Positions 21,217 through 48,902 are shown, numbered from the stretch's first letter. The stretch is 64,000 nt of DNA from Betaproteobacteria bacterium (GCA_016709665.1 JADJMI010000018.1:3431-67430), one strand, 5' to 3'. The notes: generated from the letters alone by a model not told the origin. Numbers and translations are program-made.

Positions 21217-21261
21217 AGCTGGGGACAGGTGAAAAAGGGGACGGGTGTAAATGGGGACAGG

Positions 21262-21338: not shown

Positions 21339-21346
21339 TCGGGGTG

Positions 21347-21952: not shown

Positions 21953-22495
21953 ATGAACGCTCCCGGACCGCCTTCGGGACCGATACGGCCCCGCGTCGAG
22001 GAACTGTTTCCCGCGCTCTACGACGAGCTGCGGCGGCTGGCCCGCGGGCGCCTGGCGGGCGGGGGGAGGCCGACGCTGCTCGACACCCGGTCGCTGGTGC
22101 ACGAGGCCTACATGCGCATGCAGAAGGGCGGGGGCGTCGCGGTGAACGACCGCGAGCACTTCCTCGCCTACGCGGCGAGCACCATGCGCTCCGTGGTCAT
22201 CGATTTCGTCCGTCGCCGCGATGCCGACCGCCGCGGCGGCGACGCGGAGCACGTCACCCTGCAGACGGACGCGGCGGCGGACCTGGGCGCCGCGGACGAG
22301 GAGATCCTCGCGGTCCACCAGGCGCTCGAGAAGCTGGCCGATGTCGACGCGCGGCTGGTGCGCGTGGTCGAGATGCGCTATTTCGCGGGACTCTCCGATA
22401 TCGAGATCGCCCAGGCGCTCCAGGTGACGGACCGAACGGTGCGCCGCGATTGGGAGCGCGCCAGGCTGCTGCTCGCGCAGATGCTCGGGCGCTAG
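21953..22495 (+). CDS. ECF-type RNA polymerase sigma factor (kinase-associated ECF class)
   Basis: LFPALYDELRRLARGRLAGGGRPTLLDTRSLVHEAYMRM (Sigma70_ECF-type N-terminus) and a C-terminal region-4 HTH, VVEMRYFAGLSDIEIAQALQVTDRTVRRDWERARLLL. It is the second half of the fused ORF 21251..22495. Confidence 0.88.
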   Translation: MNAPGPPSGPIRPRVEELFPALYDELRRLARGRLAGGGRPTLLDTRSLVHEAYMRMQKGGGVAVNDREHFLAYAASTMRSVVIDFVRRRDADRRGGDAEHVTLQTDAAADLGAADEEILAVHQALEKLADVDARLVRVVEMRYFAGLSDIEIAQALQVTDRTVRRDWERARLLLAQMLGR

Positions 22496-22581
22496 CGTCC
22501 GGGCTTGTCCGGACCCTGGCCCGGAGCGCGTGGAACCCCCAAGGAGAAAGCGCCCCGCTCCCCGCGCGGCCCGAGGACACC

Positions 22582-25269
22582 GTGCATCCCCCCGACCCGC
22601 CCGACAGCCACCGCCTGAAGCAACTGGCCGTTCTCCTCGACGAGGCGCTCGCGCTCGCGCCCGAGGCGCGCGGGACCTGGCTCGCCTCGCTCCCGGACAC
22701 CCAGGCGCCGCTTCTCGCCGACCTGCGGGCCCTGCTCGCGCGCGCGGAGGTCGCCACGGATACCTTCATGGGCCGGCCGGTGAGCCTCGAGGCGCTCGGT
22801 GTCGCGCCGCCGGGCTCCGACGCGCCTTCGGGACTCGTGGGCACCTACCGCCTCGTGCGCGAACTGGGCGAGGGGGGCATGGCGACCGTCTGGCTCGCCG
22901 AGCGCGCCGACGGGACGCTGCAGCGGCAGGTAGCGCTCAAGCTGCCGCGCATGGGCTGGGCGCGGGGTCTCGCCGAACGCATGGCGCGCGAGCGGGACAT
23001 CCTCGCCGGGCTCGAGCACCCGCACATCGCGCGGCTGTACGACGCCGGCGTGACGGACGAGGGCCGGCCGTATCTCGCGATGGAGTTCGTGGACGGCCAG
23101 CCGATCGACCGGTACTGCGCTTTGCGCCACGCGGACCTGGCGACGAGGCTCGCGCTCTTCCTGCAGGTGTGCGAGGCGGTGTCGCACGCGCACGCGAGGC
23201 TGGTGGTGCACCGGGACCTCAAGCCCTCGAACATCCTCGTGACCCACGCCGGCTCGGTGCGCCTGCTCGATTTCGGCGTGGCGAAACTGCTGGAGGGCGA
23301 GGGCCGCGTCGACACCGGGCTCACGCAGTTCCACGGCCGCGCCTTCACGCCCGACTACGCCTCGCCCGAGCAGGTCCGCGGCGAGGCCCTGGGCACCGCG
23401 AGCGACGTGTACTCGCTCGGCGTGGTGCTCTACGAGCTGCTCGCGAGCGAGCGGCCCTATCGCGTCGCGCGCGACACGCCGGCGGCTCTCGAGGAAGCGG
23501 TGCTCGACGCGGAAGTGCCGCCGGCCAGCTCGCGGGTCTCCGACCGGCGGCTCGCGCGGGCGCTGCGCGGCGATCTCGACACCATCCTCGCGAAGGCGCT
23601 GCGCAAGCGCCCGGCGGCGCGCTACGCGAGCGTCGACGCCTTCGCGCAGGACGTGCGCCGCCATCTCGAGGGTGAGCCCGTGCTCGCCCGGCCGCCGAGC
23701 TTCCGCTACCGCGCGACGAAGTTCATGCGCCGCCATCGCTGGCCCGTGGCGGCGTTGGCCTCCATCGTGCTCGCGCTCGGCGCAGGCGTCGCGGTGGCGC
23801 TCAACGAGGCGCACGAGGCCGATCGCCAGCGCCGGCTCGTCCTCGAACGCACGACCCAGGCGGAGGCGGCGCTGGAGTTCGCGAGCTCGGTCATCACCGA
23901 GGGCATCCGCGGCGGCGAGCGGCTCACGCGCGAGGAGCTTCTCGAGCGGGCGACGCAGCTGGCGGCGGCGGCCGGCGGGAGCGCGGCGGAACGCCTCACC
24001 GCGGCGGACACCGTGAGCAGCTGGAACATGTCGGTCGGTCGCCATCGCGTCGCGGAGGCGCTGCTCTCGCGGACCCTCGCGGAGACCTCGCGCGAAGAGG
24101 CGCCTTTCCTGCACCGGATACTGACCTGCCGGCTGGGCTCGGCGCGCGCGAGCCTGGGTCGCCTGGACGAGGGCATCGCCGTGCTGACGGGCGTGATCGA
24201 CGAGCCGCGCGTCCCGGCGGAAGTGGCCGCCTATTGCCTGCAGCGGCGCGCGCTCGTGGCCCGCTATTCCGGCGATGCCGCGTCGGCGCTGCGGTTCGCG
24301 CTCCGGGCGCGCCAGCAGCACGAGGCCTCGGAGCGCTTCACGCCGGTCGCGCGGGCGCTGCTGGAAGGCGAGCTCGGCTACGCGTATTCGATGGCGGGCC
24401 AGCCGGCCGAGGCGGACCGCCACTACGGCGAAGCGAGCCGGGTCTTCGGCGCCTCGGGCCGCGACCACAGCGTGCAGGCCCTCACCGTGTACAACAACTG
24501 GGGCATCGCGCTCCTCAGCATGGGCAATCCGCGCGAGGCGCTCGTGCAGCTCGAGCGCGCGCTCGCGGTCTCGAAACGCTACGCCGTCGAAGGCGACGCG
24601 CCCGGCTACCTCATCTCCAACCAGGCCATCGCCTTCCTGATGCTCGCGCGCATCGACGAGGCGGAGGCGAACTTCCGGCGCCTGCTGCCGGTCGCGCGCG
24701 CCGCGGGCGACGTGAACTTCGAGGTCGCCGCCCATTCCGGTCTCGCGGAGGTCGAGCTCGTCCGGGGACGCCTCGACGCGGCCGGCGCGGTGCTCGACGA
24801 GGGCGAGCGTCTCGTCGCCGAGCGGAAGCTGCATCCCGGCACCGCGCCCGTGCGGCGCCTCCTCACCGCGAGGATCGCGTACCTGATCGAGCGCGGCCGC
24901 CTGGACGAGGCGGGGCGGCTCGTGGACGAGGTGCTCGCCGAGTTCGAGCGCGCGCAACTGAAGGTCGGCGCGCTCAGCATCTCGCTGCGCCAGCGCAGCG
25001 TGATCCACGCGCGGCAGGGCCGGCTGGCCGAGGCGCTGGCGGACGCGGAGCGCTCGCTCGTCGTCGCGCGCGACACGCAGGGGGCGAAGCCGCACTCGTT
25101 CTTCGCGGGCGCGGCGTGGCTCGCGATCGCGCGCCTGAAGGAACGCGGGGACAACGGCCCCGAAGCGGCGGCGGCGGCGCGGGAGGCGCTCGTGAACCTC
25201 GAGGCGACCGCGGGCGGGACGCATCCGCTCACGAAGGAAGCGAAACGGCGGGTTGGCGCGGCGCGCTGA
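22582..25269 (+). CDS. Ser/Thr protein kinase with one TM segment and a C-terminal TPR-like domain
   Basis: Hanks kinase motifs GEGGMATVWLA, VALK, HRDLKPSNILV, DFGVAK and SPEQ. The TM segment is WPVAALASIVLALGAGVAVAL. A long helical-repeat C-terminus follows. Start GTG 22582 is preceded by AGGA; the ORF is open back to TTG 22450. Confidence 0.88.
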   Translation: MHPPDPPDSHRLKQLAVLLDEALALAPEARGTWLASLPDTQAPLLADLRALLARAEVATDTFMGRPVSLEALGVAPPGSDAPSGLVGTYRLVRELGEGGMATVWLAERADGTLQRQVALKLPRMGWARGLAERMARERDILAGLEHPHIARLYDAGVTDEGRPYLAMEFVDGQPIDRYCALRHADLATRLALFLQVCEAVSHAHARLVVHRDLKPSNILVTHAGSVRLLDFGVAKLLEGEGRVDTGLTQFHGRAFTPDYASPEQVRGEALGTASDVYSLGVVLYELLASERPYRVARDTPAALEEAVLDAEVPPASSRVSDRRLARALRGDLDTILAKALRKRPAARYASVDAFAQDVRRHLEGEPVLARPPSFRYRATKFMRRHRWPVAALASIVLALGAGVAVALNEAHEADRQRRLVLERTTQAEAALEFASSVITEGIRGGERLTREELLERATQLAAAAGGSAAERLTAADTVSSWNMSVGRHRVAEALLSRTLAETSREEAPFLHRILTCRLGSARASLGRLDEGIAVLTGVIDEPRVPAEVAAYCLQRRALVARYSGDAASALRFALRARQQHEASERFTPVARALLEGELGYAYSMAGQPAEADRHYGEASRVFGASGRDHSVQALTVYNNWGIALLSMGNPREALVQLERALAVSKRYAVEGDAPGYLISNQAIAFLMLARIDEAEANFRRLLPVARAAGDVNFEVAAHSGLAEVELVRGRLDAAGAVLDEGERLVAERKLHPGTAPVRRLLTARIAYLIERGRLDEAGRLVDEVLAEFERAQLKVGALSISLRQRSVIHARQGRLAEALADAERSLVVARDTQGAKPHSFFAGAAWLAIARLKERGDNGPEAAAAAREALVNLEATAGGTHPLTKEAKRRVGAAR

Positions 25270-25394
25270 GCCCGTGCCGTCCTGTCGCCGTCCGGCGACG
25301 ACGGGGAGTTGCTGAAAAAGTCGTGTCCGCAATCGGCGGGGACCTGCGTGGAACCGGGTAGGAGCGTCCCGTTCCGCTCAGACAAGGACCCGCG

Positions 25395-26987
25395 ATGAAA
25401 CCCGCATTCCCGCATCTTCCCCTCGCCGCGCGCACGGACACCGACGCCGTGCGCCCGCGTCCCCACATCATCCTGGCCGGCGCCACGATGGCCGTAGTCG
25501 CGCTGGTCGCCGTCACCGCCGCGGCCGTCAACGGCGATCTTGCGCCGCGCGAAGGACCGCGCGCGATCGAAGCGCCGCTCGGCATCGCCGCGCTGAGCCC
25601 GGAATCGGTTCCGCTCGGATCGGGCAACTTCCTGCTCACGGTGAGCGGCTCGGGCTACGAGGCCGGGACCACGGCGCTCTGGAACGGCGAGCGGCGCCCG
25701 ACGCAGGTGCTCTCGCCGCGCCGGCTGGCGGCCTGGATCACCGCGGCGGACGCCGCGCGCCAGGGACCGCACGTCGTGACGGTCGCCACGCCGGGCGTCG
25801 GCCGGTCGTCCGCGATGTACGTGACCACCTACGAGCGCGCCGAACTCGACGCGCGGGCCGACCGCGTGCTGGGCCAGCCGGGCTTCGCGGCGAAGATGCC
25901 CTATCACCCGGACGTGGGCGCGGAGCGCGACGGCGTCGTGAATGCGGCGGGCTTCGATCGCCTGGGTCCGCAAGGCACGGCCGTCGATCCGGCGAGCGGG
26001 CGGCTGTTCGTCGTCGAGTCGCGGGCGGCGCGAATCCTGTCGTGGCCGAGCGCGCGCGCCTTCCAGAACGCGGAAGCCGCGGACATCGTGATCGGCCAGC
26101 CCGACGAATTTTCCGCGGGACCGAAGCCCGCGGACGCGCGCACCTTCTGCGCGCCGCAATCCGTGGCCGTGGATCCGGCCGGCTCGGCCTACGTCTCGGA
26201 CGATTGCTACAACCGCGTCCTGCGCTTCGATCCGCCTTTCGCCTCGGGCATGGCGGCCGCGGCCGTCTACGGGCAGGGCGGTTCGTTCGAGACCACCGCG
26301 TCCAACCGCGGCGGGCGCAGCCGGGCGAGCCTCTCCAGCCCGCTGGGCGTCGCGGTGAACGGCGAGGCGCTTTTCGTGCACGACGCGGGCAACCGTCGCG
26401 TGCTGGTGTTCAAGCAGCCGCGCTCGCGTGCGACCGCCGATGCCGTGATCGGCCAGGCCGACGCGAACGCGTTCGATGCCGCCCCGGCGAGCGCGACCCG
26501 CCTGGCCGCGGGCGAGGGCGCCCTCGCGCTCGACGCCGCCGGCCGCCTCTACGTGGCCGACTCCGCGGGCAACCGCGTGCTGCGCTTCTCGCCGCCCTTC
26601 CGCAGCGCCATGGCGGCCGACCTCGTGCTCGGCCAGCGGGACTTCGCGCAGGTAGGGCGCTCGAATCTCGCCGGGGGCCTCTGGCGGCCGGCCGCGCTCG
26701 CGTTCGACGGCGCCGGCAACCTGCTCGTGGCCGATGCCGGCAACCATCGCGTCGTGCGCTACGCCGCGCCGCTCGCGAGCGGCATGTCCGCCTCGGGCCT
26801 GCTCGGGCAGGCGGGGTTCGGGATGGGCACGCCGGGCGTGGGGCGTTCGCGCTTCGCGACGCCCTCGGGCATCGCCGTGGATGCCGGCGGCGACGTGATC
26901 GTGGCCGACGCCGGCAACGCGCGCGTGCTCGCCTTCGACCGGCCCTTTCCGGTGACCGGGACGGGCACGCTCGCGCGGAGCCGCTGA
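25395..26987 (+). CDS. Membrane-anchored IPT/TIG + six-blade NHL-like propeller protein (half-size paralogue, no twin module)
   Basis: N-terminal TM HIILAGATMAVVALVAVTAAAV. The IPT-like segment (LSPESVPLGSGNFLLTVSGSGYEAGTTALWNGERRPT) is followed by blades with a D..N.RVLRF..PF...M motif. It is collinear with the C-terminal half of the four downstream giants. Confidence 0.85.
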   Translation: MKPAFPHLPLAARTDTDAVRPRPHIILAGATMAVVALVAVTAAAVNGDLAPREGPRAIEAPLGIAALSPESVPLGSGNFLLTVSGSGYEAGTTALWNGERRPTQVLSPRRLAAWITAADAARQGPHVVTVATPGVGRSSAMYVTTYERAELDARADRVLGQPGFAAKMPYHPDVGAERDGVVNAAGFDRLGPQGTAVDPASGRLFVVESRAARILSWPSARAFQNAEAADIVIGQPDEFSAGPKPADARTFCAPQSVAVDPAGSAYVSDDCYNRVLRFDPPFASGMAAAAVYGQGGSFETTASNRGGRSRASLSSPLGVAVNGEALFVHDAGNRRVLVFKQPRSRATADAVIGQADANAFDAAPASATRLAAGEGALALDAAGRLYVADSAGNRVLRFSPPFRSAMAADLVLGQRDFAQVGRSNLAGGLWRPAALAFDGAGNLLVADAGNHRVVRYAAPLASGMSASGLLGQAGFGMGTPGVGRSRFATPSGIAVDAGGDVIVADAGNARVLAFDRPFPVTGTGTLARSR

Positions 26988-26988
26988 A

Positions 26989-29900
26989 GTGGATCCGCGA
27001 ACCGCGTCCCGCAGGCGCCGTCGCGACGACGAATCGCCGGGGCATACCCTGAAAGTCGTGGCCGGGTTCCTCGCCGCCCTCGTCGCGCTGCTGCTCGCCG
27101 CCATGGCCTCGACGATGGCGCGCGCCGCCCCGCTCGATTTCGTGCCCGACGCCGTGCTCGGCAAGCCCGACTACACGTCGCCGCCGTTCGGCACGCCATC
27201 GGCCACGAACCTGTCGCGGCCCATCGCGATGGCCGAAGACCCGGTTTCCGGCGAGTTGTGGGTCGTCGACAACGGATTGAGCCGCGTGCTGCGCTTCGCG
27301 TCGGCCGCCGCCTTCGCCGCCGGCGAGGCGGCCAACCTCGTGCTGGGGCAGGCGACCTTCACCGTGGGCGCGGGCAATCGCGGCGGGCCCGTGTCCGCGA
27401 ACACGCTCAACCAGCCCCACGGCATCGCCGTGGACCAGGCCCGCCGCGTCCATGTCGCCGACACGGGGAATCATCGGGTGCTCGTTTACGCGCCGCCCTT
27501 CGCGAACGGCATGGACGCGAGCCGGGTGCTCGGCCAGGCCGACTTCGCGTCGAATGCGCCCAATGCCGGCCAGGCGCTTCCCCACGCGCGCGGCTTCAGC
27601 AATCCGCTCGGCCTCGCCCTCGGCGACACGGGCACCCTGTGGGTCGCGGACAGCGCCAATGCGCGGGTCCTGCGCTTCAGCGCGCCCGCGAGGAGCAACG
27701 ATGCCGCCTCGGGCGTCCTCGGGCAGCCGGGGTTCGTCACGAATGTCCAGATGGTTTCGGCCACGGGGATGAGGTCCCCGAGCGGCGTCCACGTGGACCC
27801 CGGCGGCAATCTCTGGGTGGCGGATGGGTTCGGCAACCGCGTGACGCGCTACGCCCGCGGCGTGCTGGGCACCCCGGGCGCTGCGGCGGACGCCGTCCGG
27901 TGCCAGCCCGGCTTCACCACGTCGGCCCCGGGCACTTCGGAGTCGGCGTGCAACGGTCCCGACGCGGTGTTGGTCGATGCGGAGGGATTCGGCCTCTACG
28001 TGTCGGAGTTCTTCAACAATCGCGTGCTGCAGTTCGGCGCCGGCACGGCGACGGCGTGGCTGGGGCAGGCTTCGCCCAACGAAGGGCTCTGCAATCGCGG
28101 CCTGGCGGGACGGACGCACGAAACCCTGTGCCTGCCGCGCGGACTGCTGTTCGACCGGATCGGCAACCTGCTCGTCGCGGACCTGGGCAACGGCCGCGTG
28201 CTGCGCTACGACCGGCCGGTGGCGCCGGGCACGGCGATCGCGAATGCGGCGGCGCCCCAAGCGATACCGGCCGGGTCGGGCAGCGTCGACGTCACGATCG
28301 GCGGCCAGGCGCTTTACGCGCACACCGTCGTCCGACTGAACGGCCAGCCGGTCGCATCGCGGTACCTGTCGAGCGGGCGGCTCGTGGCGACGCTGCCGGC
28401 CGCGGCGCTCGCCGGAAGCGGGCCCCTCGCGCTCACGGTCGAAACGCCGGGTGCCCTCGGGGCGCCGTCTCCCGCGATGCCGCTCGCCCGCTACGCCCGC
28501 GCGCCTCACGACGGCCTCGCCGACCGGGTGCTGGGACAGCCCGACTTCGTGACGAAGGCCAACGCCAATCCGTCCGTCGGCGGCGCAAGAGTGGGCCCCG
28601 CCAACGGCGCGACCCTGGGCGACGAAGGGCGCGTGGCGATCGACCCGGTGTCGGGCCGCGTCTTCGTCGTGCAGCGCTTCGAGAACCGCGTGCTTTCCTG
28701 GCCGAGCCAGGCGGAATTCCACAACGCGCAGCGTGCCGATGTCGTGATCGGGCAGCCGGACGAGTTCGCCTTCCAGCCGGGCGCGACCGACGCGCGCACC
28801 TTGTCCGGTCCCCGCGGCCTCGCTGTGGATCCCGCGGGCCGGCTCTACGTCGCGGACTCCGGCCATCACCGCGTGTTGCGCTTCGATCCGCCGTTCGCGA
28901 CGGGCATGGCCGCCGTGCGGGTGTTCGGCCAGGGCGGGGCCTTCGACACGGGCATCGCCGACAAGGGCGGGCGCAGCGGCGCGAGCCTCAACACCCCCCA
29001 GGCCGTCGCGGCGGACGCGAATCGCCTCTTCGTGATCGACAGCGCCAACCATCGCGTCCTCGTCTACGAGAATCCCGACGCCGACACGACGGCGGATGCG
29101 GCCATCGGCCAGGCGGACCTGGCGAGCGCCGCCGTGCTGCCGGCCAGCCGGACGCGATTCAACGGCACGGCATTCGGACTCGCGCTCGACGGCAGCGGGC
29201 GCCTTTACTTCGCCGGCGCGAACGAGCATCGCGTGCTGCGTTTTCCGCCGCCCTTCGCGAGCGACATGGCCGCCGACCTCGTCATCGGCCAGCCCGACTT
29301 CGTCTCCACGGCCGCCGGCCGGTCGGCGACCGCGCTGAACCGGCCGGTCGGCGTCGCCGTCGATGCCGCCGGTCACCTGCTCGTGGCCGAGTCGTCCAAC
29401 CATCGCGTGATGCGCTTCGCCGCGCCCCTCGCGAACGGGCAGGCCGCAAACGGATTGCTGGGACCGCCGGGCTACACGGACGCCATTCGCGGGACGGACC
29501 GGCGCCTGCTCGACAGCCCCACGAGCGTGGCGGTGGACGAGAGCGGCAACGTGCTCGTGTACGACCAATTGAACCGGCGCGTACTCGCCTACGACCGGCC
29601 GTTCGGGCGCCTCTCGCCTTCGCGCACGGTGAATCTCTCCACCCGAATGGCGGTGCTCACCGGCGAGAACGTGCTGATCGGCGGCTTCGTGATCGAGGGC
29701 ACGGCTCCGAAGCGCGTGGTGATCCGCGCGCGCGGGCCGTCTCTTTCGGGCTTCGGCATTCCCAACGCGCTCGCCAACCCGGTGCTGCAACTCTTCTCGG
29801 GACCGACGCAGATCGCCGCCAACGACGACTGGCGCGCGGCAGCCAATGTCGCCGACATCCAGGCGAGCGGCTTCGCGCCGGCGAACGACCGCGAGTCGGC

Positions 29901-30382
29901 GATCCTCGCGACGCTCCAGCCCGGCGCCTACACCGCGATCGTCTCGGGCGCGGGCGGGGTGACGGGCGTAGGCATCGTGGAGGTGTTCGAAGTGGACACG
30001 CCCGCCACGCCGCTCATCAACATCGCCACGCGCGGCGCGGTGCTCACCGGGAGCGACGTGATGATCGCGGGCTTCGTGATCCAGGGCCCGGGCGCGCAGA
30101 CGGTGGTGGTGCGCGCGCGGGCCTTCGCTCGCGCAGGCCGGTGTCGCGCAACCGCTCGCCAACCCGCTGCTGCAACTCTTCGCGGGCGCGACGTCGATCG
30201 CATCCAACGACGACTGGACCGTCTCGGGCAACGCGGCGGCCATCCAGGCGAGCGGCTTCGCGCCCGCGCACGCGAAGGAGGCGGCGATCCTCGTGACGCT
30301 GCAACCGGGCGCCTACACCGCGATCGTCTCCGGTGTGGGCGGCACCACCGGCGTGGGCATCGTCGAAGTCTTCATTCCCTGA
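26989..30382 (+). pseudogene. Dual-propeller NHL/IPT secreted protein A with twin NISTR...EVF module; 2-nt (GC)n contraction at 30111-30119
   Basis: Signal peptide ...FLAALVALLLAAMASTMARA; the start is GTG 26989 or GTG 27058. The architecture is propeller 1, IPT, propeller 2, then the twin module from ~29620. Against paralogue B, the run gtgcgcgcgcgcggg is shortened to gtgcgcgcgcggg. The restored frame ends VEVFIP-stop at 30380-30382. The out-of-frame read-through creates the artificial 1945-aa ORF. Confidence 0.85.
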
Positions 30383-30405
30383 ACGCGAAACCGAGGCTAT
30401 CCCCG

Positions 30406-33400
30406 ATGAAATCCACCCCGACCCGGTTCCTGGCCGCATTTCTTATCGCGTGCGCGGGCCTCGCCCGGGCCGCGCCGCTCGACCTCGCCCCCGACGCGGT
30501 GCTCGGCAAGCCGGACTACACGACCCCGACGGTCGGCGCGGCGTCCGCGACGAACATCCAGATGCCGATGGGGCTCGCCGAGGACCCCGTGAGCGGCGAA
30601 CTGTGGGTGACGGACCACTTCGCGAGCCGCGTGTTGCGCTACGCCTCCGCGCGGGCCTTCGCGAACGGCGAGGCGGCCAACCTCGTGCTCGGGCAGGCGA
30701 ACTTCACGGCTTCGGACGCCAACCGGGGCGGCGCGGTCGCCGCGAACACGCTCAACCGGCCGCGGGGCCTCGCCGTGGACCAGGCGCGCCGCCTCTACGT
30801 GTCGGACTCCGACAACCACCGCGTGCTGGTCTACGCGCCGCCGTTCGCGAACGGGATGGACGCGGGCGTCGTGGTCGGCCAGGGCAGCTTCACGACGAAC
30901 GCTCCCGACCTGGGCGGCGGCACGCCGACGCATATCGGGCTGCGGGCGCCCCACGGCCTCGCGCTCGACGACGAGGGCCAGCTCTGGGTGGCGGACGCGG
31001 GCAATGCCCGGGTGCTGCGGTACGGCGCCCCGCTGAGGTCGTTCGCCGGTGCGATCGACGTCAAGGGCCAACCGGGCTTCTTCTCCCGCACGCCGGTCCT
31101 GGATGCCTCGGGCATGGGCTTTCCCGTCGGCATGAACGTGGACCGCGAGGGCAATCTCTGGGTGGTGGACCGCGGGTTCCACCGCGTCACGCGTCACCAT
31201 CGGAACGTCCTGCGCACGGACGGCGCGCCCGCGGACTGGGTGATCTGCCAGCCCGACTTCACGACCGCGACCGCGGGCGTGACCGCCACGAACTGCAACT
31301 TTCCCGAGGCGGTGGTGGTGGATCCGGAACAGACCTACGCCTACATCGCCGATGCCGGCAACAACCGCGTCCTGCGGGTCTTCAGCAAGACGGCGGACGC
31401 GTGGATCGGGCAGGCGGGCCCGAACGACCAGCTCTGCAACCGCAACGCGCAGGCGCCGTCGGCCGCCACGCTCTGCAATCCCTTCGCGCTCGCGTTCGAT
31501 CGCCTGGGCAACCTGCTCGTGGCCGATGGCGCCAACGGCCGCGTGCTGCGCTACGACCAGCCTTCCGAAAGGAACACGCCGGTTCCCCTCGAGGCGAGCC
31601 CGAGCGTGATTCCCCAGGACGGCGGTGACCTCACCGTGACGATCCACGGCCTGCGCTTCCACGGCGATACGACCGCCGTATTGAACGGGCAGCCCGTCCC
31701 GACGCGCTATCTCGCGCGGGGCCGGCTCGGCGCGACTTTGCCGGCGGCCGCGCTCGCGGGTTCCGGGGCGCTGAACATCGGCCTGCAGACGCCCGGCGCC
31801 ACCCTGGGAAGCGTGCAACCGCCGATCCCGCTGGCCCGTTACGCCCGCATGCCGGGCGACCGGCTCGCCGACCGGGTGCTGGGCCAGCCCGATTTCGACA
31901 TGGACAGTTCATCGAACTCGTCGGTCGGCGAGGCCTTGCTCGGGTCCGTCAATGCCGCCAACCTGGAAGGCGCGGGGCAGGTGGTGATTGACCCGGTCTC
32001 GGGCCGCGTCTTCCTCTCGCAGGCGCAAGCGCGGCGCTCTCGTGGCCGAGCCACGCGGACCTGCGCAACGGGCAATCGGCCGACGTCGTCATCGGCCGGC
32101 GCGATTTCTTCGAAGCCCAGGACGCCGACGTGGACGCACGGACGCTGGGCCAGGCGTTCAACGCGCTTGCGATCGACCCTGCCGGACGGCTTTACGTCGC
32201 GGACTATTTCCGCCACCGCGTGCTGCGCTTCGATCCGCCATTCGCGACGGGCATGGTCGCCGCGCGCGTATTCGGCCAGGGCGGGTCCTTCACCTCGGAC
32301 ACGAAGAACCTCGGCGGGCGCAGCGGCGCGAGCCTGGCCTACCCCGGCGCCATCGCCGTGGATGCGAACCGCCTCTTCGTCTTCGACAGCGATAGCCGCC
32401 GGATCCTGGTCTACGAGAATCCCGATGCCGACGCGACGGCGGACGCGGCCATCGGCCAGGCGGACCTGGTGTCCGCCGTGCAAATGCCGGCAAGCGCGAC
32501 GCGGATCGGGGGAGCCGGCACGGGCCTCGCGCTCGACGGCAGCGGTCGGCTCTACTTCGCCGACTACGACGCGAACCGCGTGCTGCGCTTCTCGCCGCCC
32601 TATTCGAGCGGCATGGCCGCCGACCTCGTCATCGGGCAGCCTGATTTCACGACGCGTGGACCCGGCACCTCCGAGCGCAGTCTCGACCGGCCGGGTGGCC
32701 TCGCGATCGATGCGGCCGGTCACCTGTTCGTGGTCGACCGTTCGAACAACCGGATCATCCGCTTCGCCGCGCCGCTCGCGAGCGGGCAGGCGGCCCACGG
32801 GCTGCTCGGCCAGGCGGGCTACCTGAACGCCAGCGACGGTACCGGTCGCGACGGTCTCAGCAATCCCGAGAGCGTGGCGGTGGACGAGAGTGGCAACGTG
32901 CTCGTGTACGACCAGTCGAACAGCCGCCTGCTCGCCTACGACCGGCCCTTCGGCCGCCTCTCGCCTTCGCGCACGGTGAATCTCTCCACCCGAATGGCGG
33001 TGCTCACCGGCGAGAACGTGCTGATCGGCGGCTTCGTGATCGAGGGCACGGCTCCGAAGCGCGTGGTGATCCGCGCGCGCGGGCCGTCTCTTTCGGGCTT
33101 CGGCATTCTCAACGCGCTCGCCAACCCGGTGCTGCAACTCTTCTCGGGACCGACGCAGATCGCCTCCAACGACGACTGGCGCGGGGCGGCCAACGCGGCC
33201 GACGTCCAGGCGAGCGGCTTCGCGCCGTCGAACGACCGCGAGTCGGCGATCCTCGCGACGCTCCAGCCCGGCGCCTACACGGCGATCGTCTCGGGCGCGG
33301 GCGGGGTGACGGGCGTAGGCATCGTTGAAGTGTTCGAAGTGGACACGCCCGCCACGCCGCTCATCAACATCGCCACGCGCGGCGCGGTGCTCACCGGGAG

Positions 33401-33731
33401 CGACGTGATGATCGCGGGCTTCGTGATCCAGGGCCCGAGCGCGCAGACGGTGGTGGTGCGCGCGCGCGGGCCCTCGCTCGCGCAGGCCGGTGTCGCGCAA
33501 CCGCTCGCCAACCCGCTGCTGCAACTCTTCGCGGGCGCGACGTCGATCGCATCCAACGACGACTGGACCGTCTCGGGCAACGCCGCGGCCATCCAGGCGA
33601 GCGGCTTCGCGCCGCCGAACCCGCGGGAAGCCGCGATTCTCGTGACGCTGCAACCGGGCGCCTACACCGCGATCGTCTCCGGCGTGGGCGGCACCACCGG
33701 CGTGGGCATCGTCGAAGTGTTCATCCCCTGA
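30406..33731 (+). pseudogene. Dual-propeller NHL/IPT secreted protein B with twin NISTR...EVF module; frame break at ~32020-32035
   Basis: Signal peptide MKSTPTRFLAAFLIACAGLARA. The frame of ORF 26989..32826 holds up to GRVFLSQAQ. The protein then continues as ALSWPSHADLRNGQSADVVIG... in the frame of ORF 32130..33731. It ends GVGIVEVFIP-stop. Confidence 0.85.
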
Positions 33732-33835
33732 CCGGCCGATGTCCGCTTCGGCGGCGTGATCGCGTGGGACGAGACAAGGGGATCCGTGCGCGCGCCGGCA
33801 TCCCCGTCCCACGACAACGACAGGAAGCGTTCCCC

Positions 33836-36800
33836 ATGCAATCCCTCATCCGCCGGTTCGCGCCGGGGCTCGTCGCGCTCGCGTGCGCAACCTCCCCGCC
33901 GCTCGCGGCCGCGCCCATCGACGCCATCGCCGATGCGGTGATCGGCAAGCCCGGTTTCGACGCACCGGCGGGCGGCGCTGCCTCGGCCGACAATTTCCTC
34001 CGGCCTTCCGCGCTGGCCGAGGATCCGGTCTCGGGCGAACTCTGGGTCGCCGACGCGAACGCGCACCGGGTGCTGCGATTCGCCTCCGCACGCGCCTTCG
34101 CGAACGGCGAAGCGGCCAACCTCGTGCTGGGGCAGGCGGATTTCGCGGGCGCGGCGCCCAATCGGGGCGGCGCGGCGGGCCCGGGCACGCTCGCCACGCC
34201 GGCGGGACTCGCCGTGGACGGCGCACGGCGCCTGTACGTGTCGGACGCGAACAACCACCGCGTGCTGGTCTTCAAGCCGCCCTACGCCAACGGCATGGAT
34301 GCGTCGAACGTCTTCGGCCAGGGCAATCTCGTGTCGGCCGCGCGCAACCGGAATTCCGGCACGCCCCGCGCCGACGGCCTCGACACCCCGCAGGGAATCG
34401 CGCTGGACCCGGAAGGGCGGCTCTGGGTCGCGGACGGCTTCAACGCGCGCGTCGTGCGGACCTCGGCGCCGGTCACCGTCAACGGGCTCCGCGCGGACGT
34501 GATCCTGGGCCAGCCCTCGGAAGTCTCGAATGCGCCGGCGCTCACCGCCACCGGCATGCGCGTGCCCACCGGCGTCGCCCTGGATCCGGAGGGCAACGTC
34601 TGGGTGGCCGACTTCCTCTGGCATCGCGTGACGCGCTACGCCGCGCCGGCGCCGGGCACGCTCGGCCCGCCGGCCGACCGCGTGCTCTGCCAGCTGGGCC
34701 CGCTGTCCTCGGTCACGGGCGCCGGCGACTCGCGCTGCAACATGCCCACGGGCGTCGCGGTCGATGCGGAGGGCCGGGTCCACGTGACCGACCTGGGCAA
34801 CAGCCGCGTGCTGATGTTCGCCTCGCCGGATCTCGCGCCGATCGCGACGGGCTGGATCGGCCAGGCCACGGCCGACGGCGCGCTCTGCAACGGCGGGGCG
34901 GCGCAGCCGTCGGCGCGGTCGCTCTGCGCTCCCCTCAGCGCGAGCCTCGACCGGCACGGCGACCTGCTGGTGGCGGACTCGGGGAACGGGCGCGTGCTGC
35001 GCTTCGATTCCCCCTTCCTCCGGAACCCGTCGGAGGCGACGAGCCTGAGCCCGTCGACGATCGCGCGCGGCACGGGCGATTTCGACCTCACCGTGAACGG
35101 ATCCGGCTTCTACGGCGACTCCGTGGTGCACTGGAACGGCCAGCCGCGCCCGACGCGCTACGTGAGCGGCGAGCGGCTCGTCGCGAGGATCGCGGGGGCG
35201 GATGTCGCCGCCGCGGGCCACGCCGAAATCCTGGTCATGACGCCCGCGCCGTTCGGCGGCCCGTCGGGCCTGCTGGGTGCATTCATCGCCGATCGCCAGG
35301 CGGGCGACGGGATCGCCGACCTCGTACTCGGCCAGCCCGATCTCTTCGCGAGCGTCGTGCTGAACCGGCGCGTCGGTGCGCAGGCCCTGGGCACGGCGAA
35401 TCCCGCCTCGCTTCCCGCCAACCTGCGGTCCGTCGCGATCGATCCCGCCACGGGGCGCCTTTTCGTCGCCGACGGCCGCGCCCGCGTGCTCTCCTGGCCC
35501 GGCCTCGCGAACCTGCAGAACGGCGAGGCGGCGGACGTGGTCGTCGGCCGGCCCGACGCGTTCACCCTCGACTGCGACGACATGGCGCCCACGGCGACGA
35601 TCGTGTGCGACCCCTGGGGGCTCGCGGTCGACGCGGGCGGGCGGCTCTACGTGTCCGAACCGGCGCGGCATCGCGTGCTGCGCTTCGACCCGCCCCATCG
35701 CACGGGCATGGCCGCCGCCCGCGTCTTCGGGCAAGGCGGTTCGTTCACCACCTTCACGCGCAACAAGGGCGGCATCGGGCCCGGCAGCCTGAGCGAACCG
35801 AGCGGCCTCGCGACGAGCGGCAACCGCCTGTTCATCCATGACGGCGGCAACGCCCGCATTCTCGTGTTCGACGATCCGGATGCCGTCGCGAACGCCAATG
35901 CCGTGATCGGCCAGCCGGACATGGTCACGGCCGCCGTGCAGGCGCCGAGCGCCACGCGCCTGGGTGGCGGGCCCGGGGGGCTCGCGGTGGACCGCGACGG
36001 CCGGCTTTTTCTCGCCGATGGCGCGAACGCTCGCGTCCTGCGCTTCGCGCCGCCTTTCGCGAACGGCATGCCCGCCGATCTCGTCATCGGCCAGGCCGGC
36101 TTCACGACGAACGGCAGCGGGCTTTCGGCCTCGAACCTCCGGTTGCCGGCGGCCGTGGCCGTGTCCCGCGGCGGCGACCTGCTCGTCGCCGACGGCGGCA
36201 ACCATCGCGTGCTGCGCTTCGCCGCGCCGCTCGCGACCGGCATGGCGGCGACGCGCGTGCTCGGCCAACCGGCCTTCAATACCGACATGCCGGTCGCTTC
36301 CCCGGAGGGGCTCGGCACGCCGGTCGGCGTGGCGATCGACGCGGGCGGCAACGTCGTCGTGGCCGATTCGGGCAACGCACGGGTCCTCGCCTACGACCGT
36401 CCCTTCGGCGGGACGGCGCCGTCGCCGGGCCGCGTGGTCAACCTCTCCACGCGCATGGCGGTGCTCACGGGCAACGACGTGATGATCGGCGGCTTCATCG
36501 TCGGCGGCACGCAGCCCAAGCGGGTCGTGATCCGCGCGCGCGGGCCTTCGCTCGCGGCGGCCGGGGTGCCGAACGTGCTGGCGAACCCGCTGCTGCAGCT
36601 ATTCGCGGGGCCGACGCCGATCGCCGCCAACGACGATTGGCGCGTGGCGGCCAATGCCGCCGACGTGCAGGCGAGCGGCTTCGCGCCGTCGAACGACCGC
36701 GAGGGCGCGATCCTCGCGACGCTCGCTCCCGGGGCCTACACCGCGATCGTCTCGGGCGTCGCCGGGACCACGGGCGTGGGCCTCGTGGAAGTCTTCGAGG

Positions 36801-37195
36801 TGGACCTGCCCGCGTCGCCGCTCGTCAACATCGCCACCCGCGGCCGCGTGCTCACGGGCAACGACGTGATGATCGCGGGCTTCGTGATCCAGGGCGACCT
36901 GCCGCAGAAAGTGGTGATCCGCGCGCGCGGGCCCTCGCTCGCGGCCCAGGGCGTGCCGGGCGTGCTCGCCAACCCCTTGCTGCAGGTGCTCTCGGGCGCG
37001 ACGCCCGTCGCCGTGAACGACGACTGGGGACTCGCGGCCAACGCGGCCGCCCTCCAGGCGAGCGGCTTCGCGCCCGCAGACCCGCGGGAGGCCGCGGTCC
37101 TCGCGACGCTCGAGCCCGGCGCCTATACCGCCATCGTCACCGGGGCGGGAAGCACCACCGGCGTGGGCATCGTGGAGGTCTTCGCCATTCCCTGA
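33836..37195 (+). CDS. Dual-propeller NHL/IPT secreted protein C with twin NISTR...EVF module
   Basis: Signal peptide MQSLIRRFAPGLVALACATSPPLAAAP. It has the same architecture as A and B and is intact. The twin module at ~36430..37192 ends GVGIVEVFAIP-stop. Confidence 0.9.
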   Translation: MQSLIRRFAPGLVALACATSPPLAAAPIDAIADAVIGKPGFDAPAGGAASADNFLRPSALAEDPVSGELWVADANAHRVLRFASARAFANGEAANLVLGQADFAGAAPNRGGAAGPGTLATPAGLAVDGARRLYVSDANNHRVLVFKPPYANGMDASNVFGQGNLVSAARNRNSGTPRADGLDTPQGIALDPEGRLWVADGFNARVVRTSAPVTVNGLRADVILGQPSEVSNAPALTATGMRVPTGVALDPEGNVWVADFLWHRVTRYAAPAPGTLGPPADRVLCQLGPLSSVTGAGDSRCNMPTGVAVDAEGRVHVTDLGNSRVLMFASPDLAPIATGWIGQATADGALCNGGAAQPSARSLCAPLSASLDRHGDLLVADSGNGRVLRFDSPFLRNPSEATSLSPSTIARGTGDFDLTVNGSGFYGDSVVHWNGQPRPTRYVSGERLVARIAGADVAAAGHAEILVMTPAPFGGPSGLLGAFIADRQAGDGIADLVLGQPDLFASVVLNRRVGAQALGTANPASLPANLRSVAIDPATGRLFVADGRARVLSWPGLANLQNGEAADVVVGRPDAFTLDCDDMAPTATIVCDPWGLAVDAGGRLYVSEPARHRVLRFDPPHRTGMAAARVFGQGGSFTTFTRNKGGIGPGSLSEPSGLATSGNRLFIHDGGNARILVFDDPDAVANANAVIGQPDMVTAAVQAPSATRLGGGPGGLAVDRDGRLFLADGANARVLRFAPPFANGMPADLVIGQAGFTTNGSGLSASNLRLPAAVAVSRGGDLLVADGGNHRVLRFAAPLATGMAATRVLGQPAFNTDMPVASPEGLGTPVGVAIDAGGNVVVADSGNARVLAYDRPFGGTAPSPGRVVNLSTRMAVLTGNDVMIGGFIVGGTQPKRVVIRARGPSLAAAGVPNVLANPLLQLFAGPTPIAANDDWRVAANAADVQASGFAPSNDREGAILATLAPGAYTAIVSGVAGTTGVGLVEVFEVDLPASPLVNIATRGRVLTGNDVMIAGFVIQGDLPQKVVIRARGPSLAAQGVPGVLANPLLQVLSGATPVAVNDDWGLAANAAALQASGFAPADPREAAVLATLEPGAYTAIVTGAGSTTGVGIVEVFAIP

Positions 37196-37219
37196 GCTTC
37201 ATGTGTGTCGTTCCCTTTC

Positions 37220-37245
37220 GGGCGCCCGGTGGCGCCCCTTTTTTT
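37220..37245 (+). terminator. Rho-independent terminator after paralogue C
   Basis: GGGCGCC-CGGT-GGCGCCC stem-loop followed by CTTTTTTT, 25 nt after the stop codon. Confidence 0.8.
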
Positions 37246-37368
37246 GCCGATCCTGCGCGACCCGATGTCCGCCACGGACCGGCGACTGCGTGAAACGAGA
37301 GGGAAGCCTCGCGCCCGTTCCGGGCGCGGGGCGAACGCCCGTGCCCCCGGGATGAAAGGCCCGATGCC

Positions 37369-40300
37369 ATGACCGTACGCTGGATCCTTCGCCTGCTGCT
37401 GTCGTTGTCGATCGTCACGATGGCGATGGCGACGTCCTGTTCCTCGCAGGCGGCGGCGCTCGATGCCGTGCCCGACGCCGTGCTCGGCAAGCCGGACTTC
37501 GTGACGCCGGCCGGCGGCGCGGCGTCGTCGACGAACCTCTTGCGCCCCGGAGGGCTCGCCGAGGATCCGGTGTCCGGGGAGCTGTGGGTCGCGGATCCCG
37601 GGGCGAACCGCGTGCTGCGCTTCGCTTCCGCGAGGGCCTTCGCGAACGGCGAGGCCGCGAACGCGGTGCTGGGCCAGGCCGATTTTTCCGCGTCGGCGGC
37701 CAACCGGGGCGGCCCGGCCGCGGCCGGAACGCTCGCTCGTCCCTCGGCCCTCGCGGTGGACGCGGCCCGGCGCCTCTACGTCGCCGACACCGGCAATCAC
37801 CGCGTGCTCGTCTTCGGGCCGCCCTATGCCGACGGCATGGCCGCGCGCGTGGTCGTGGGGCAGGACGATTTCGCCGGAGCCCTCGCCAACCGCGGCGCGC
37901 CCGCGCCGACGAGCGAGAGCCTCGCGGCGCCCCAGGGACTCGCGCTCGATCTCGTCGGCAACCTCTGGGTGGCGGATACCGGCAATGCGCGCGTCCTGCA
38001 GTTCTCGGGATACATCGAAGGCCAGAACCGTTCGCCCGACGGCGTCCTCGGGCAGCCGGGATTCACGACGGCGGCGGCGAACCTCACGGCGCGCGGCCTT
38101 TCCGCGCCGGTGGGCCTGGCGATCGACGGCGATTCCCACCTCTGGGTCGTGGATCGGGGCCACCACCGCGTCCTGAAATATCCGCCCACGCCGCTCCTCA
38201 CGACGAACGCCGCGGCCGTGGGCGTGCTGTGCCAGGGCGACTTCGTCACGGCCGTGTCCGCGACATCGGCGACGGGGTGCCTCGCGCCGGCCGGCGTCGC
38301 CATCGACGGGGAAGGCCGCGTGCACGTGACCGATTCGGGCAACCATCGCGTGCTGCGGTTCGACGCGCCGGCCCCGGGCGCGGCGGCCGATGCGATCCTC
38401 GGGCAGGCGCTGCCGGGCGACGGGGCGTGCAACCGCGGCGCCATCGCCCCGACGGATCTTTCGCTTTGCGGGCCGTCGTCGCTGGGCGTGGACCGCCGCG
38501 GCAACCTGCTGGTCGCGGACGGCGGCAACGGGCGCCTGCTGCGCTACGACATTCCCGTGCGCCGCGCCCGGCCCGTGGCGCGCGCCACGAGCCCCGCCGC
38601 GCTGGCGAGGAACTCGCCGGGCGCCACGCTGACGGTCGACGGCGAACGGTTCACCGACGATGCGGTGGTCCTCTGGAATGGCCTGCCGCGGCCGACACGG
38701 TTCGTGTCGGCCCACCGCCTGCTGGCGGACCTGCCGGCCGCCGACGTGGCCGTGGCCGGGCCCCACGCGGCGCGCGTCGTCACGCCGGCGCCGGGGGGCG
38801 GCGAGAGCGCGGATGCGCTCGTCGTGGACACCTACGAGCGCGCGCCCTTCGACGCCGCGGCCGACGGCGTGCTGGGCCAGCCCGGTTTCGCGAGCGGCTT
38901 GGCGCTGAACCGCTCGGTCGGTGCCGGGCAGGTGGGCTTCTTCAACGCGTCGAGCCTGCATGACCTGATGCATTTCGTGACGATCGACCCGGTCACGGGG
39001 CGGGTCTTCGCGAACGACGCCTGGGCCGGCCGGGTGCTGTCGTGGCCGAACATCGCCGCGGTGCGCGACGCGCTCCCCGCGGACGTGGTGATCGGCAAGC
39101 CCGACGCCTTCGCGTCGCAATGCGACTTCCTCGCGCCCACGGCGAGCGAACTGTGCGACGCCGCGCAGGTGGCGATCGACGAGGCGGGCCGGCTCTACGT
39201 GGCGGAATCGATCCGCCATCGCGTGTTGCGCTTCGACCCGCCCTTCGCGACCGGGATGGCGGCCTCGCGCGTGTTCGGCCAGGCGGGCTCGTTCGCGACC
39301 GGCGAATCGAACCTCGGGGGACTGGGCCCGGCGAGCCTCGATTCGCCTTCCGGCCTCGCCGTTCACGGCCGGCGCCTGTTCATCCTGGACGGCGGAAACA
39401 TGCGGATCCTCGTGTACGACGATCCCGATGCCCGGCTCGCCGCGGACGCCGTCATCGGCCAGGCGGATTTCGCGTCGGCCGGCTTCGCGCCGGCGAGCGC
39501 CACGCGCTTCCGGTCCCCGTACTCGGGGCTCGCCACCGATCGCGAGGGGCGCCTGTTCCTGGCGGATTCCCACGCGAACCGCGTGCTGCGCTTCTCGCCG
39601 CCGTTCGCGAACGACATGGCCGCGGACCTCGTCGTCGGCCAGGCGAACTTCACCGGCACGGGCGCCGGCCTGTCGGCCTCCCGGTTCGACTTTCCCTGGG
39701 CCGTCGCTCTCGACGAATCCGGCGCCCTCCTCGTGGCCGACCGGAACAACCATCGGGTGCTGCGCTTCCCGGCGCCGTTGTCGGACGCGATGGCCGCGAC
39801 GGGCGTGCTCGGCCAGGCCGGGTTCGGCACGGGCGTGCCGTCCGCGACCTCGCGCACCAGCCTCCTGCACCCCGTCGGCATCGCCGCCGACAAGCAAGGC
39901 AACGTGGTGGTGATCGACTCGGGACGCTCGCGCATCCTCGCCTACGACCGGCCCTTCGCGAGCGCCGCCGCGCCGGGCCGCCTCGTCAATCTATCGACGC
40001 GCATGTCGGTGCGTACCGGGGACGACGTGCTGATCGGCGGCTTCGTGATCGGCGGGACGCAGCCGAAGAACGTCGTGCTGCGCGCGCGCGGGCCTTCGCT
40101 CGCCGGCGTGGGAGTCCCGAATGCCCTGCTGGATCCGGAGCTGCGGCTTTTCTCCGGGCAGACCGTGATCGCCGCGAACGACACCTGGAGCGCCGCGCCG
40201 AACGCGGCCGCGATCGAGCTGGGCGGCTTCGCGCCGAACCACTCGCATGAAGCGGCGATCCTCGCGAGGCTCGCCCCGGGCGCCTACACCGCGATCGTGT

Positions 40301-40740
40301 CGGGCGTGGGCGGCACGACGGGCGTGGGACTCGTCGAGGTGTTCGAGGTGGACGTTCCCGCCTCGCCGCTCGCCAACATCGCCACGCGCGGAAACGTCCG
40401 GACGGGAAGCGACGTGATGATCGCCGGCTTCATCATCCAGGGGGAGACGCCGCAGACCGTCGTGATCCGCGCGCGCGGCCCCTCGCTCGCGCCCTTCGGC
40501 TTCGCCGAGGTCCTCGCCGATCCCGTCCTGCAACTCTTCTCGGGCGCGACGCCGATCGCCACGAACGACGACTGGTCGCTCGCGGCCGATGCGCCGGCCA
40601 TCCTGGCGAGCGGCTTCGCGCCGGCCCACGCGCGGGAAGCCGCCATCCTCGTCACCCTCAACCCCGGCGCCTACACCGCCATCGTCTCGGGCGCCGGCGG
40701 TACCACCGGCATCGGGTTGGTGGAAGTGTTCGCGCGCTAA
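37369..40740 (+). CDS. Dual-propeller NHL/IPT secreted protein D with twin NISTR...EVF module
   Basis: Signal peptide MTVRWILRLLLSLSIVTMAMATSCSSQAAA (possible lipobox-like TSC). It has the same architecture as A-C. The twin module at ~39975..40737 ends GIGLVEVFAR-stop. Confidence 0.9.
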   Translation: MTVRWILRLLLSLSIVTMAMATSCSSQAAALDAVPDAVLGKPDFVTPAGGAASSTNLLRPGGLAEDPVSGELWVADPGANRVLRFASARAFANGEAANAVLGQADFSASAANRGGPAAAGTLARPSALAVDAARRLYVADTGNHRVLVFGPPYADGMAARVVVGQDDFAGALANRGAPAPTSESLAAPQGLALDLVGNLWVADTGNARVLQFSGYIEGQNRSPDGVLGQPGFTTAAANLTARGLSAPVGLAIDGDSHLWVVDRGHHRVLKYPPTPLLTTNAAAVGVLCQGDFVTAVSATSATGCLAPAGVAIDGEGRVHVTDSGNHRVLRFDAPAPGAAADAILGQALPGDGACNRGAIAPTDLSLCGPSSLGVDRRGNLLVADGGNGRLLRYDIPVRRARPVARATSPAALARNSPGATLTVDGERFTDDAVVLWNGLPRPTRFVSAHRLLADLPAADVAVAGPHAARVVTPAPGGGESADALVVDTYERAPFDAAADGVLGQPGFASGLALNRSVGAGQVGFFNASSLHDLMHFVTIDPVTGRVFANDAWAGRVLSWPNIAAVRDALPADVVIGKPDAFASQCDFLAPTASELCDAAQVAIDEAGRLYVAESIRHRVLRFDPPFATGMAASRVFGQAGSFATGESNLGGLGPASLDSPSGLAVHGRRLFILDGGNMRILVYDDPDARLAADAVIGQADFASAGFAPASATRFRSPYSGLATDREGRLFLADSHANRVLRFSPPFANDMAADLVVGQANFTGTGAGLSASRFDFPWAVALDESGALLVADRNNHRVLRFPAPLSDAMAATGVLGQAGFGTGVPSATSRTSLLHPVGIAADKQGNVVVIDSGRSRILAYDRPFASAAAPGRLVNLSTRMSVRTGDDVLIGGFVIGGTQPKNVVLRARGPSLAGVGVPNALLDPELRLFSGQTVIAANDTWSAAPNAAAIELGGFAPNHSHEAAILARLAPGAYTAIVSGVGGTTGVGLVEVFEVDVPASPLANIATRGNVRTGSDVMIAGFIIQGETPQTVVIRARGPSLAPFGFAEVLADPVLQLFSGATPIATNDDWSLAADAPAILASGFAPAHAREAAILVTLNPGAYTAIVSGAGGTTGIGLVEVFAR

Positions 40741-48826: not shown

Positions 48827-48902
<76 letters not shown>

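Follow-up and report, generated by a model that had tools for sequence, protein, structure and literature searches.

A tandem array of NHL-propeller genes is probably switched on by the adjacent ECF43 sigma factor/kinase pair in a betaproteobacterial genome

The stretch of DNA analysed here (the window) comprises 64,000 nt of a 72,053-bp contig from a metagenome-assembled genome (MAG), deposited as "Betaproteobacteria bacterium", and has a G+C content of approximately 72%. Within this window, a gene for an extracytoplasmic function (ECF) sigma factor and a gene for a Hanks-type Ser/Thr kinase are followed on the same strand by five paralogous genes encoding NHL-propeller proteins (paralogues A to E) and, further downstream, by genes for a patatin-like phospholipase and an AurF-like di-iron protein (Table 1). 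A first-pass annotation of the window had proposed that the propeller array is the output of the sigma factor/kinase pair. Based on the sequence comparisons described below, we consider it likely that the array is indeed switched on by the adjacent pair, with the sigma factor presumably gated by phosphorylation. The proposal is supported by a conserved promoter-like motif and not by conserved gene order. Contigs with 96-99% identity to the window are present in at least 6 other assemblies (including L001-L006 and L091), and the closest homologues of the sigma factor are found in Piscinibacter, Rubrivivax, Methylibium, Caldimonas, and Pseudorhodoferax.

The sigma factor gene is well supported by its matches to PF07638 (132.5 bits at a cutoff of 21.1) and TIGR02999 (159.9 bits at a cutoff of 126.15) as well as by the periodicity of the G+C content at third codon positions (GC3), which supports coding on the + strand throughout. 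The encoded protein consists of regions sigma-2 and sigma-4 only, as expected for the ECF type. ECF43 sigma factors are known to lack the acidic DAED patch of sigma-2.2 (PMC8999054), and a phospho-acceptor Thr at the third position of the corresponding motif is conserved in 88% of ECF43 members (PMC13147305). In the protein studied here, the sigma-2.2 motif reads D44-T45-R46-S47, followed by LVHE, and only the first Asp of the acidic cluster has been kept. Across the clade formed by its homologues, position 46 is variable (R, S, A, G, or T), and both Thr45 and the linker residue Thr105 are invariant, making the latter two candidate phosphorylation sites. Upstream of the sigma factor gene lie genes corresponding to Amidohydro_2, lgt, and amidase_2, separated by gaps of 9, 34, and 23 nt, and domain scans revealed no anti-sigma domain among the neighbours. 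The Amidase_2 gene (21251-21929), located just upstream of the sigma factor gene, is frameshifted by an extra G near position 21620. This frameshift is missing in four short-read assemblies with 99% identity, in which the gene is intact, so that an assembly error in the window sequence is plausible.

The kinase gene starts 86 nt downstream of the sigma factor gene. Its product is composed of an 88-residue N-terminal extension, a Pkinase domain (residues 89-351), one transmembrane segment at approximately residues 387-410 (hydrophobic windows start at 387-392), and a C-terminal region with TPR repeats (593-665, TPR_12) that is presumed to be periplasmic. The catalytic motifs GEGGMATV (residue 96), VALK (117), HRDLKPSN (210), DFG (230), and SPE (261) are all present. 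Taken together, the domain matches, the catalytic motifs, and the GC3 periodicity confirm that the sigma factor gene and the membrane-spanning TPR kinase gene called in the first-pass annotation are real. Sharp divergence of the TPR region marks the lineage that bears the NHL genes: the region is 62% identical to its counterpart in a sister species and 25-38% identical to those of other genera, and the kinase domain stays 57-72% identical where the TPR region has diverged.

Downstream of the kinase gene, BLASTP comparisons corroborated the presence of five collinear paralogues on the + strand, and the previously given gaps of 1, 23, 104, and 173 nt between them proved correct. Over approximately 1100 amino acids, B and C are 69% identical and D and E 59%, while B or C compared to D or E share approximately 56% identity. 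Paralogue A corresponds to the half of B-E that contains the IPT-like domain and the second propeller (46-50% identity) and lacks the C-terminal tandem module of the larger proteins. Only one convincing terminator was found in the array. It had been noticed before and assigned to the interval between C and D; it is actually located between the fourth and fifth paralogues, D and E. A sixth NHL paralogue, which carries the same C-terminal module, is encoded elsewhere in the window on the minus strand (approximately 14022-16856; 944 amino acids in L001), downstream of genes for a TctC protein and an ILVD/EDD-family dehydratase.

While the five genes of the array exist as annotated, B and C are not the clean open reading frames (ORFs) that they had been taken for: their lengths are not multiples of 3, and both are frameshifted as sequenced. 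Compared with the 3' end of C, a (GC)n tract of B at approximately 30111-30119 is short by one GC unit (2 nt), and the frame of C changes at approximately 32020-32037; as written, frame 1 remains open between 26989 and 32826. The 3'-terminal 780 bp of B (29603-30382) and C (32950-33731) are 96% identical, compared to 69% for the proteins overall, suggesting recent gene conversion. These near-identical 3' ends also account for the breaks of short-read assemblies at these positions. No independent contig was found to span either frameshift site, as L091 begins no earlier than the 3' end of C, and two metagenome pattern scans for these sites returned no match. We rate it as about as likely as not that one of two alternatives holds, namely that B and C are decaying to pseudogenes, which would make the suggested 15 kb of expressed propeller genes an overstatement, or that the frameshifts are assembly errors in near-identical repeats. 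Besides the frameshifts in B and C themselves, this is suggested by the indel in the amidase gene, a third one, which four short-read assemblies contradict, by an SNF2 gene elsewhere in the window that is split, hinting at indel errors, and by the fact that the window is a MAG contig. On the other hand, strong GC3 periodicity on both sides of each shift and the intact domains argue against long-standing pseudogenes.

Table 1. Genes and predicted regulatory features of the sigma factor/kinase locus (positions refer to the window).
Feature	Position	Strand	Basis or remark
ECF sigma factor, ECF43/TIGR02999 type, 180 aa	21953..22495	+	PF07638, TIGR02999; identical to MBK7660297.1
P_kin, in the sigma-kinase gap	22506..22536 (TGTCCG 22506-22511; GCGTGGAAC 22528-22536)	+	Position weight matrix (PWM) 23.8 bits
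Hanks-type receptor Ser/Thr kinase, 895 aa	22582..25269	+	Domain and motif scans
P_A, 40 nt upstream of the A start codon	25324..25354	+	PWM 30.1 bits, top match in the window
Paralogue A, 530 aa: N-terminal membrane anchor, IPT-like (CoaZ_rpt_PGGG) domain, one NHL propeller	25395..26987	+	
Paralogue B: signal peptide, propeller 1, IPT-like domain, propeller 2, two C-terminal modules; frameshifted	26989..30382	+	
Paralogue C: architecture as B; frameshifted	30406..33731	+	
P_D	33740..33770	+	PWM 29.6 bits; identical in the independent assembly L091
Paralogue D, intact, 1119 aa	33836..37195	+	100% identical to MBK7660302.1 (IPJ28_14740)
Intrinsic-terminator-like hairpin and T run after D	37220..37245	+	7-bp all-GC stem 37220-37237
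P_E	37266..37296	+	PWM 28.1 bits
Paralogue E, intact, 1123 aa	37369..40740	+	Pfam/NCBIfam, AlphaFold2 (AF2) model
Small ORF, 52 aa, hydrophobic N-terminus	40756..40914	+	Position conserved in two related assemblies
P_pat, 20 nt before the patatin ATG, AAGGAG Shine-Dalgarno between	40887..40917	+	PWM 20.8 bits
Patatin-like phospholipase	40938..41855	+	Most widely conserved neighbour of the sigma clade
AurF-like di-iron protein	41852..42802	+	4-nt overlap with the patatin stop codon; probably co-transcribed with patatin

A GCGTGRRAC nonamer is present in each of the gaps that precede the kinase, A, D, E, and patatin genes. In related genomes, this nonamer is found 18-27 nt before start codons, with a Shine-Dalgarno sequence in between and TGTCCG at a fixed distance upstream. 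The resulting bipartite motif, TGTCCG-N16-GCGTGGAAC, has a fixed spacer and a CGT in its downstream element and thus shows an ECF-like architecture. A PWM that was built solely from other genera and then run over the 64-kb window yielded five strong matches, all of which are intergenic, on the + strand, and located before the kinase, A, D, E, and patatin genes (Table 1). The next-best match in the window scored 8.6 bits, and in 100 shuffles the best score averaged 11.6 bits with a maximum of 22.5 bits. The counterparts of the patatin match scored 24.1, 20.4, and 20.7 bits in L091, L092, and L093, respectively. Within the window, no match was found before the sigma factor gene, B, C, or the sixth paralogue. 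Instead of one output unit, the array appears to comprise three promoter-bearing units (A-B-C, D, and E).

At the loci compared, the presence of the motif follows the clade of sigma factors to which that of the window belongs. We compared 29 loci with a sigma factor at least 65% identical to that of the window (close loci) to 53 loci with a sigma factor at most 61% identical (far loci). GTCC was located exactly 21 nt upstream of the GCGTGRRAC seed for 24 of 42 seeds in the close loci, with counts of 0 or 1 at all other offsets, and for none of the 41 seeds in the far loci. Likewise, occurrences of the core pattern numbered 22 for the close loci, 0 for the far loci, and 5 for the window, and motif matches of at least 20 bits were present in 25/29 close loci vs 1/53 far loci. 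These matches end at a median of 20 nt before the start codon and are intergenic wherever gene calls exist. In an alignment of 12 motif regions, only TGTCC and GCGT..C are invariant and the spacing is fixed. The genes concerned include GNAT-patatin-sigma-kinase operons, sigma factor genes, kinase genes (five other genera have a match in the sigma-kinase gap), and divergent neighbours. In addition, the motif precedes genes for AurF-like, OsmC, di-haem-peroxidase-like, cytochrome P460, thioesterase, and PEP-CTERM proteins in relatives. Patatin and GNAT genes are the most frequent motif-linked neighbours in the closest genera, joined in single genera by AurF-like, OsmC, di-haem-peroxidase-like, and thioesterase genes. 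Two positional controls were not discriminating: an ORF lies within 100 nt of 35/47 motif matches vs 964/2320 random positions, and with a crude coding mask, 26/48 motif matches fell outside called coding sequence, as did 46% of bases. Furthermore, an unbiased enrichment of 9- and 10-mers was dominated by base composition and conserved coding sequence.

Several other explanations for the conserved sequences were evaluated and rejected. An assignment of GGAAC as a -35 element with CCGYTCC as the -10 element would require a spacing that varies from 14 to at least 18 nt, and in relatives no more than 18-27 nt, including a Shine-Dalgarno sequence, separate GGAAC from the start codon. TGTCCG, located upstream at a constant distance, is the better candidate for the -35 element. 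A sigma-54 promoter, suggested by the similarity of TGGAAC to the -24 element TGGCAC, was dismissed because no TTGC follows. Conserved leader RNAs did not account for the sequences either, as the folding of six leaders resulted in z-scores of -2.2 to +0.6 and an Rfam search of 20-43 kb returned nothing. A standard scan for sigma-70 promoters gave no match in the 21.2-41.1 kb interval.

ECF sigma factors are numerous in Burkholderiales genomes. The average across genomes is approximately 10 (PMC7826278). It is therefore conceivable, although we regard it as unlikely, that the motif is recognised by a different regulator, either another ECF sigma factor or a DNA-binding protein encoded elsewhere, and that the sigma factor/kinase pair is one of its targets instead of driving the array. 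Apart from the number of possible regulators, this would fit the lack of a motif before the sigma factor gene of the window, and it was only sigma-proximal DNA that was examined in the relatives. However, the motif tracks the sigma clade, as the counts for close and far loci illustrate, and across many genera it lies directly upstream of sigma operons, as is usual for ECF autoregulation; the fixed spacer and the downstream CGT are ECF-like as well. Autoregulation is the usual behaviour of ECF sigma factors and forms the basis for predicting their promoters (PMC7826278). Given its position upstream of sigma operons, the motif is thus most simply read as the promoter of the sigma clade itself.

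The distribution of the genes across relatives was evaluated for 80 species-representative loci, with sigma homologues 50-81% identical to that of the window and 10-kb flanks, which were annotated by tblastn with the window proteins. While a kinase-domain match was located within 10 kb in 76 of these 80 loci (L011-L090), an NHL array was present in none of them, with a single weak match of 52 bits. The expected conservation of synteny between the sigma factor/kinase pair and propeller genes is thus not seen beyond very close relatives, and gene order lends no support to the regulatory link. Among the approximately 25 closest loci, most have patatin immediately upstream of the sigma factor and kinase genes. 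The array is confined to the species of the window, the sister species (sigma factor 85% identical), and a third species, and NHL copy number differs among the three. In the sister species, the array consists of A and two large genes, followed by patatin and AurF, and motif matches precede the sigma factor gene, each of the three NHL units, and patatin; in the third species, two motif matches were found. Based on these results, the NHL array looks like a lineage-specific, copy-number-variable addition to a local regulon. The wiring of the pair also differs between the species: in the window, the motif is located before the kinase gene and not before the sigma factor gene, whereas it precedes the sigma factor gene in the sister species (L092, 1013-1052), where 25 nt separate the sigma factor and kinase genes.

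Such a distribution could also arise if the adjacency had no meaning, i.e., if a mobile, expanding NHL family had landed between the kinase and patatin genes and were expressed independently of the pair. The absence of the array from all representative loci, the variation of copy number among three close species, and the presence of the sixth paralogue in an unrelated TctC/dehydratase operon that lacks the motif would all be in line with this. Nevertheless, we hold it to be quite improbable, since every promoter-bearing NHL unit in the three species keeps the motif at its exact spacing while the flanks and the spacer sequence have diverged, and since a second, unrelated ECF43/kinase pair also adjoins an NHL homologue.

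This second pair is encoded in a metagenome sequence (L094, 3440-12767; JGI metagenome 3300072892). Its NHL double-propeller protein, which is 51% identical to E and ends in a DUF4214 domain instead of the tandem module, is encoded 2.7 kb upstream of the genes for another ECF43 sigma factor and for a kinase of the Hanks type. The sigma factor is 50% identical to that of the window and has the canonical QTTA motif, and several DUF4214 proteins are encoded around these genes. The TGTCCG motif is absent at this locus.

Considering all of the above, activation of the array by the adjacent sigma factor/kinase pair remains the explanation that we favour, and it could operate as follows. The sigma factor gene would be transcribed together with the upstream lgt and amidase genes, which would provide a constitutive supply of sigma factor. 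The protein is presumed to remain inactive until it is phosphorylated by the kinase, whose TPR-containing region may sense an envelope or extracellular cue. The active holoenzyme would then start transcription at the TGTCCG-N16-GCGTGGAAC promoters. Within the window, these would drive the kinase gene, resulting in positive feedback via P_kin; A, with readthrough into B and C; D, up to the terminator; E; and patatin together with the AurF-like gene. In other genera, the corresponding putative promoters precede patatin and GNAT genes as well as genes related to oxidative stress and lipids, which suggests a response to membrane damage or stress as the ancestral output. The NHL genes appear to be a recent addition to it.

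Several observations weigh against this interpretation. In addition to the lack of the array in the species-representative loci and the frameshifts in B and C, Arg46 occupies the canonical ECF43 phospho-Thr position, i.e., the third of the sigma-2.2 motif; approximately 12% of ECF43 members likewise lack a Thr there. The score of the patatin match (20.8 bits) lies inside the range of the best scores of shuffled sequences. Since the motif seed was first noticed in the window, its discovery is partly dependent on the window, and because relatives were scanned over approximately 10 kb on each side of the sigma factor gene, another ECF sigma factor could recognise the motif. Moreover, we found no published promoter consensus for ECF43 in the accessible literature.

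With regard to the products of the array, multiple NHL repeats were detected in the paralogues (PF01436, E-values of 1e-22 to 1e-67), and all paralogues have an N-terminal signal peptide or membrane anchor. A, D, and E match NF058597 (choice-of-anchor Z) with 70.9-86.2 bits at a cutoff of 30, and matches of B and C to PF01833 are borderline (19.3-22.4 bits vs a cutoff of 20.9). The AF2 model of E, with a predicted local distance difference test (pLDDT) score of 82, comprises two six-bladed NHL propellers, an Ig-like domain, and two C-terminal beta-sandwiches. Its best Foldseek matches in the PDB are non-enzymatic NHL domains, namely those of TRIM71, TRIM2, Thin, Lin41 filamin-NHL, the PknD sensor, and teneurins, with target-normalised template modelling (TM) scores of 0.78-0.86 to the NHL domains of TRIM71, TRIM2, Thin, and PknD. 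The NHL products are thus probably exported, non-catalytic double propellers, and the Ig-like domain together with the C-terminal tandem module suggests ligand-binding or surface proteins.

The C-terminal module itself is a tandem of repeats of approximately 105 amino acids, which in E is encoded at 39900-40740 and which is also found in B, C, D, and the sixth paralogue. No sequence match to it was obtained in Pfam, NCBIfam, or the PDB. However, it is present in 18,964 representatives of 50%-identity clusters, 15,514 of which match at E ≤ 1e-10. This exposes a large, uncurated family of C-terminal tandem domains, with at least 15,000 clusters at 50% identity and E ≤ 1e-10. The module is 55-70% identical across taxa and nearly always reaches the very end of the protein, behind many unrelated N-terminal domains; such a strict C-terminal placement suggests a role in sorting, anchoring, or binding. 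Its fold is weakly similar to PPC/collagen-binding domains (best Foldseek match with an E-value of 1.5e-3 and a target-normalised TM score of 0.63; TM scores of 0.5-0.64 overall). In the sister species, a propeller protein of the glucose/sorbosone-dehydrogenase type bears the same C-terminal module.

The exported propellers might also serve as inputs of the system, if they acted as ligand-capturing co-receptors that dock on the TPR region of the kinase and thereby formed a split version of a PknD-type NHL-sensor kinase. The diverged TPR region, the fold match to the PknD sensor, and the second ECF43/kinase pair near an NHL homologue are consistent with this idea, though none of them shows it, and we consider it very improbable. 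If it were true, a growing array would broaden the set of cues, and the sigma-dependent expression of the propellers would close a positive feedback loop.

Outside the locus, the G+C content of the window drops from approximately 0.71 to 0.56-0.64 right after a tRNA-Ala(CGC) gene (48827-48902), and the region from there to the end of the window (48827-64000) looks like an integrated defence island. It encodes an ISL3 transposase fragment, the SNF2 helicase that is split into two ORFs, a large N6/N4 DNA methylase, and a ResIII helicase, as well as, on the minus strand, a DarT/DarG (macro-domain) toxin-antitoxin pair (60352-62084).

Kinase-gated ECF43 sigma factors represent a recently established mechanism with few studied examples: for both EcfP of Vibrio parahaemolyticus and EcfK of Xanthomonas citri, activation is brought about by the partner kinase (PMC8999054, PMC13147305), and in the latter species EcfK/PknS controls an adjacent type VI secretion system (T6SS) cluster (PMC13147305, PMC6653060). 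The locus described here is a further example of this known design. It offers a sharply defined candidate promoter for a subclade of Burkholderiales. With respect to the evolution of regulons, a frequent partner set of patatin and GNAT genes appears to have been extended by exported propellers, a newly captured and expanding family in which each unit has its own copy of the promoter.

The closest parallel is EcfK/PknS of X. citri (PMC13147305, PMC6653060), in which an ECF43 sigma factor likewise adjoins a kinase with the PknS layout of N-terminal extension, kinase domain, transmembrane segment, and TPR repeats. In both cases, the presumed output is a neighbouring cluster and the pair is absent from closely related clusters, indicating lineage-specific wiring. 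However, the output is a T6SS in X. citri and the NHL array with patatin and the AurF-like protein here; the sigma-2.2 motif is QATE there and DTRS here. EcfP/PknT of V. parahaemolyticus (PMC8999054, PMC8103513) belongs to the same sigma family and is similar in that the acidic DAED motif has largely been lost, pointing to a sigma factor with no intrinsic activity that is rescued by its kinase, and in that the response concerns the envelope or membrane. While EcfP carries STTA and is phosphorylated at the second Thr, the protein studied here has Arg46, with Thr45 and Thr105 as candidates. With PknD of Mycobacterium tuberculosis (PDB 1RWL), the propellers of E share the NHL sensor fold (TM score 0.78) and the context of a Ser/Thr kinase; here, though, the propellers are separate exported proteins, and it is TPR repeats that the kinase carries. 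Finally, the PPC/collagen-binding domains of clostridial collagenases (PDB 5SV5, 1NQD) provide the best, albeit weak, fold match for the C-terminal module and are likewise C-terminal beta-sandwiches of secreted proteins, whereas the module of the propeller proteins is a strictly C-terminal tandem pair with an unusually high conservation.

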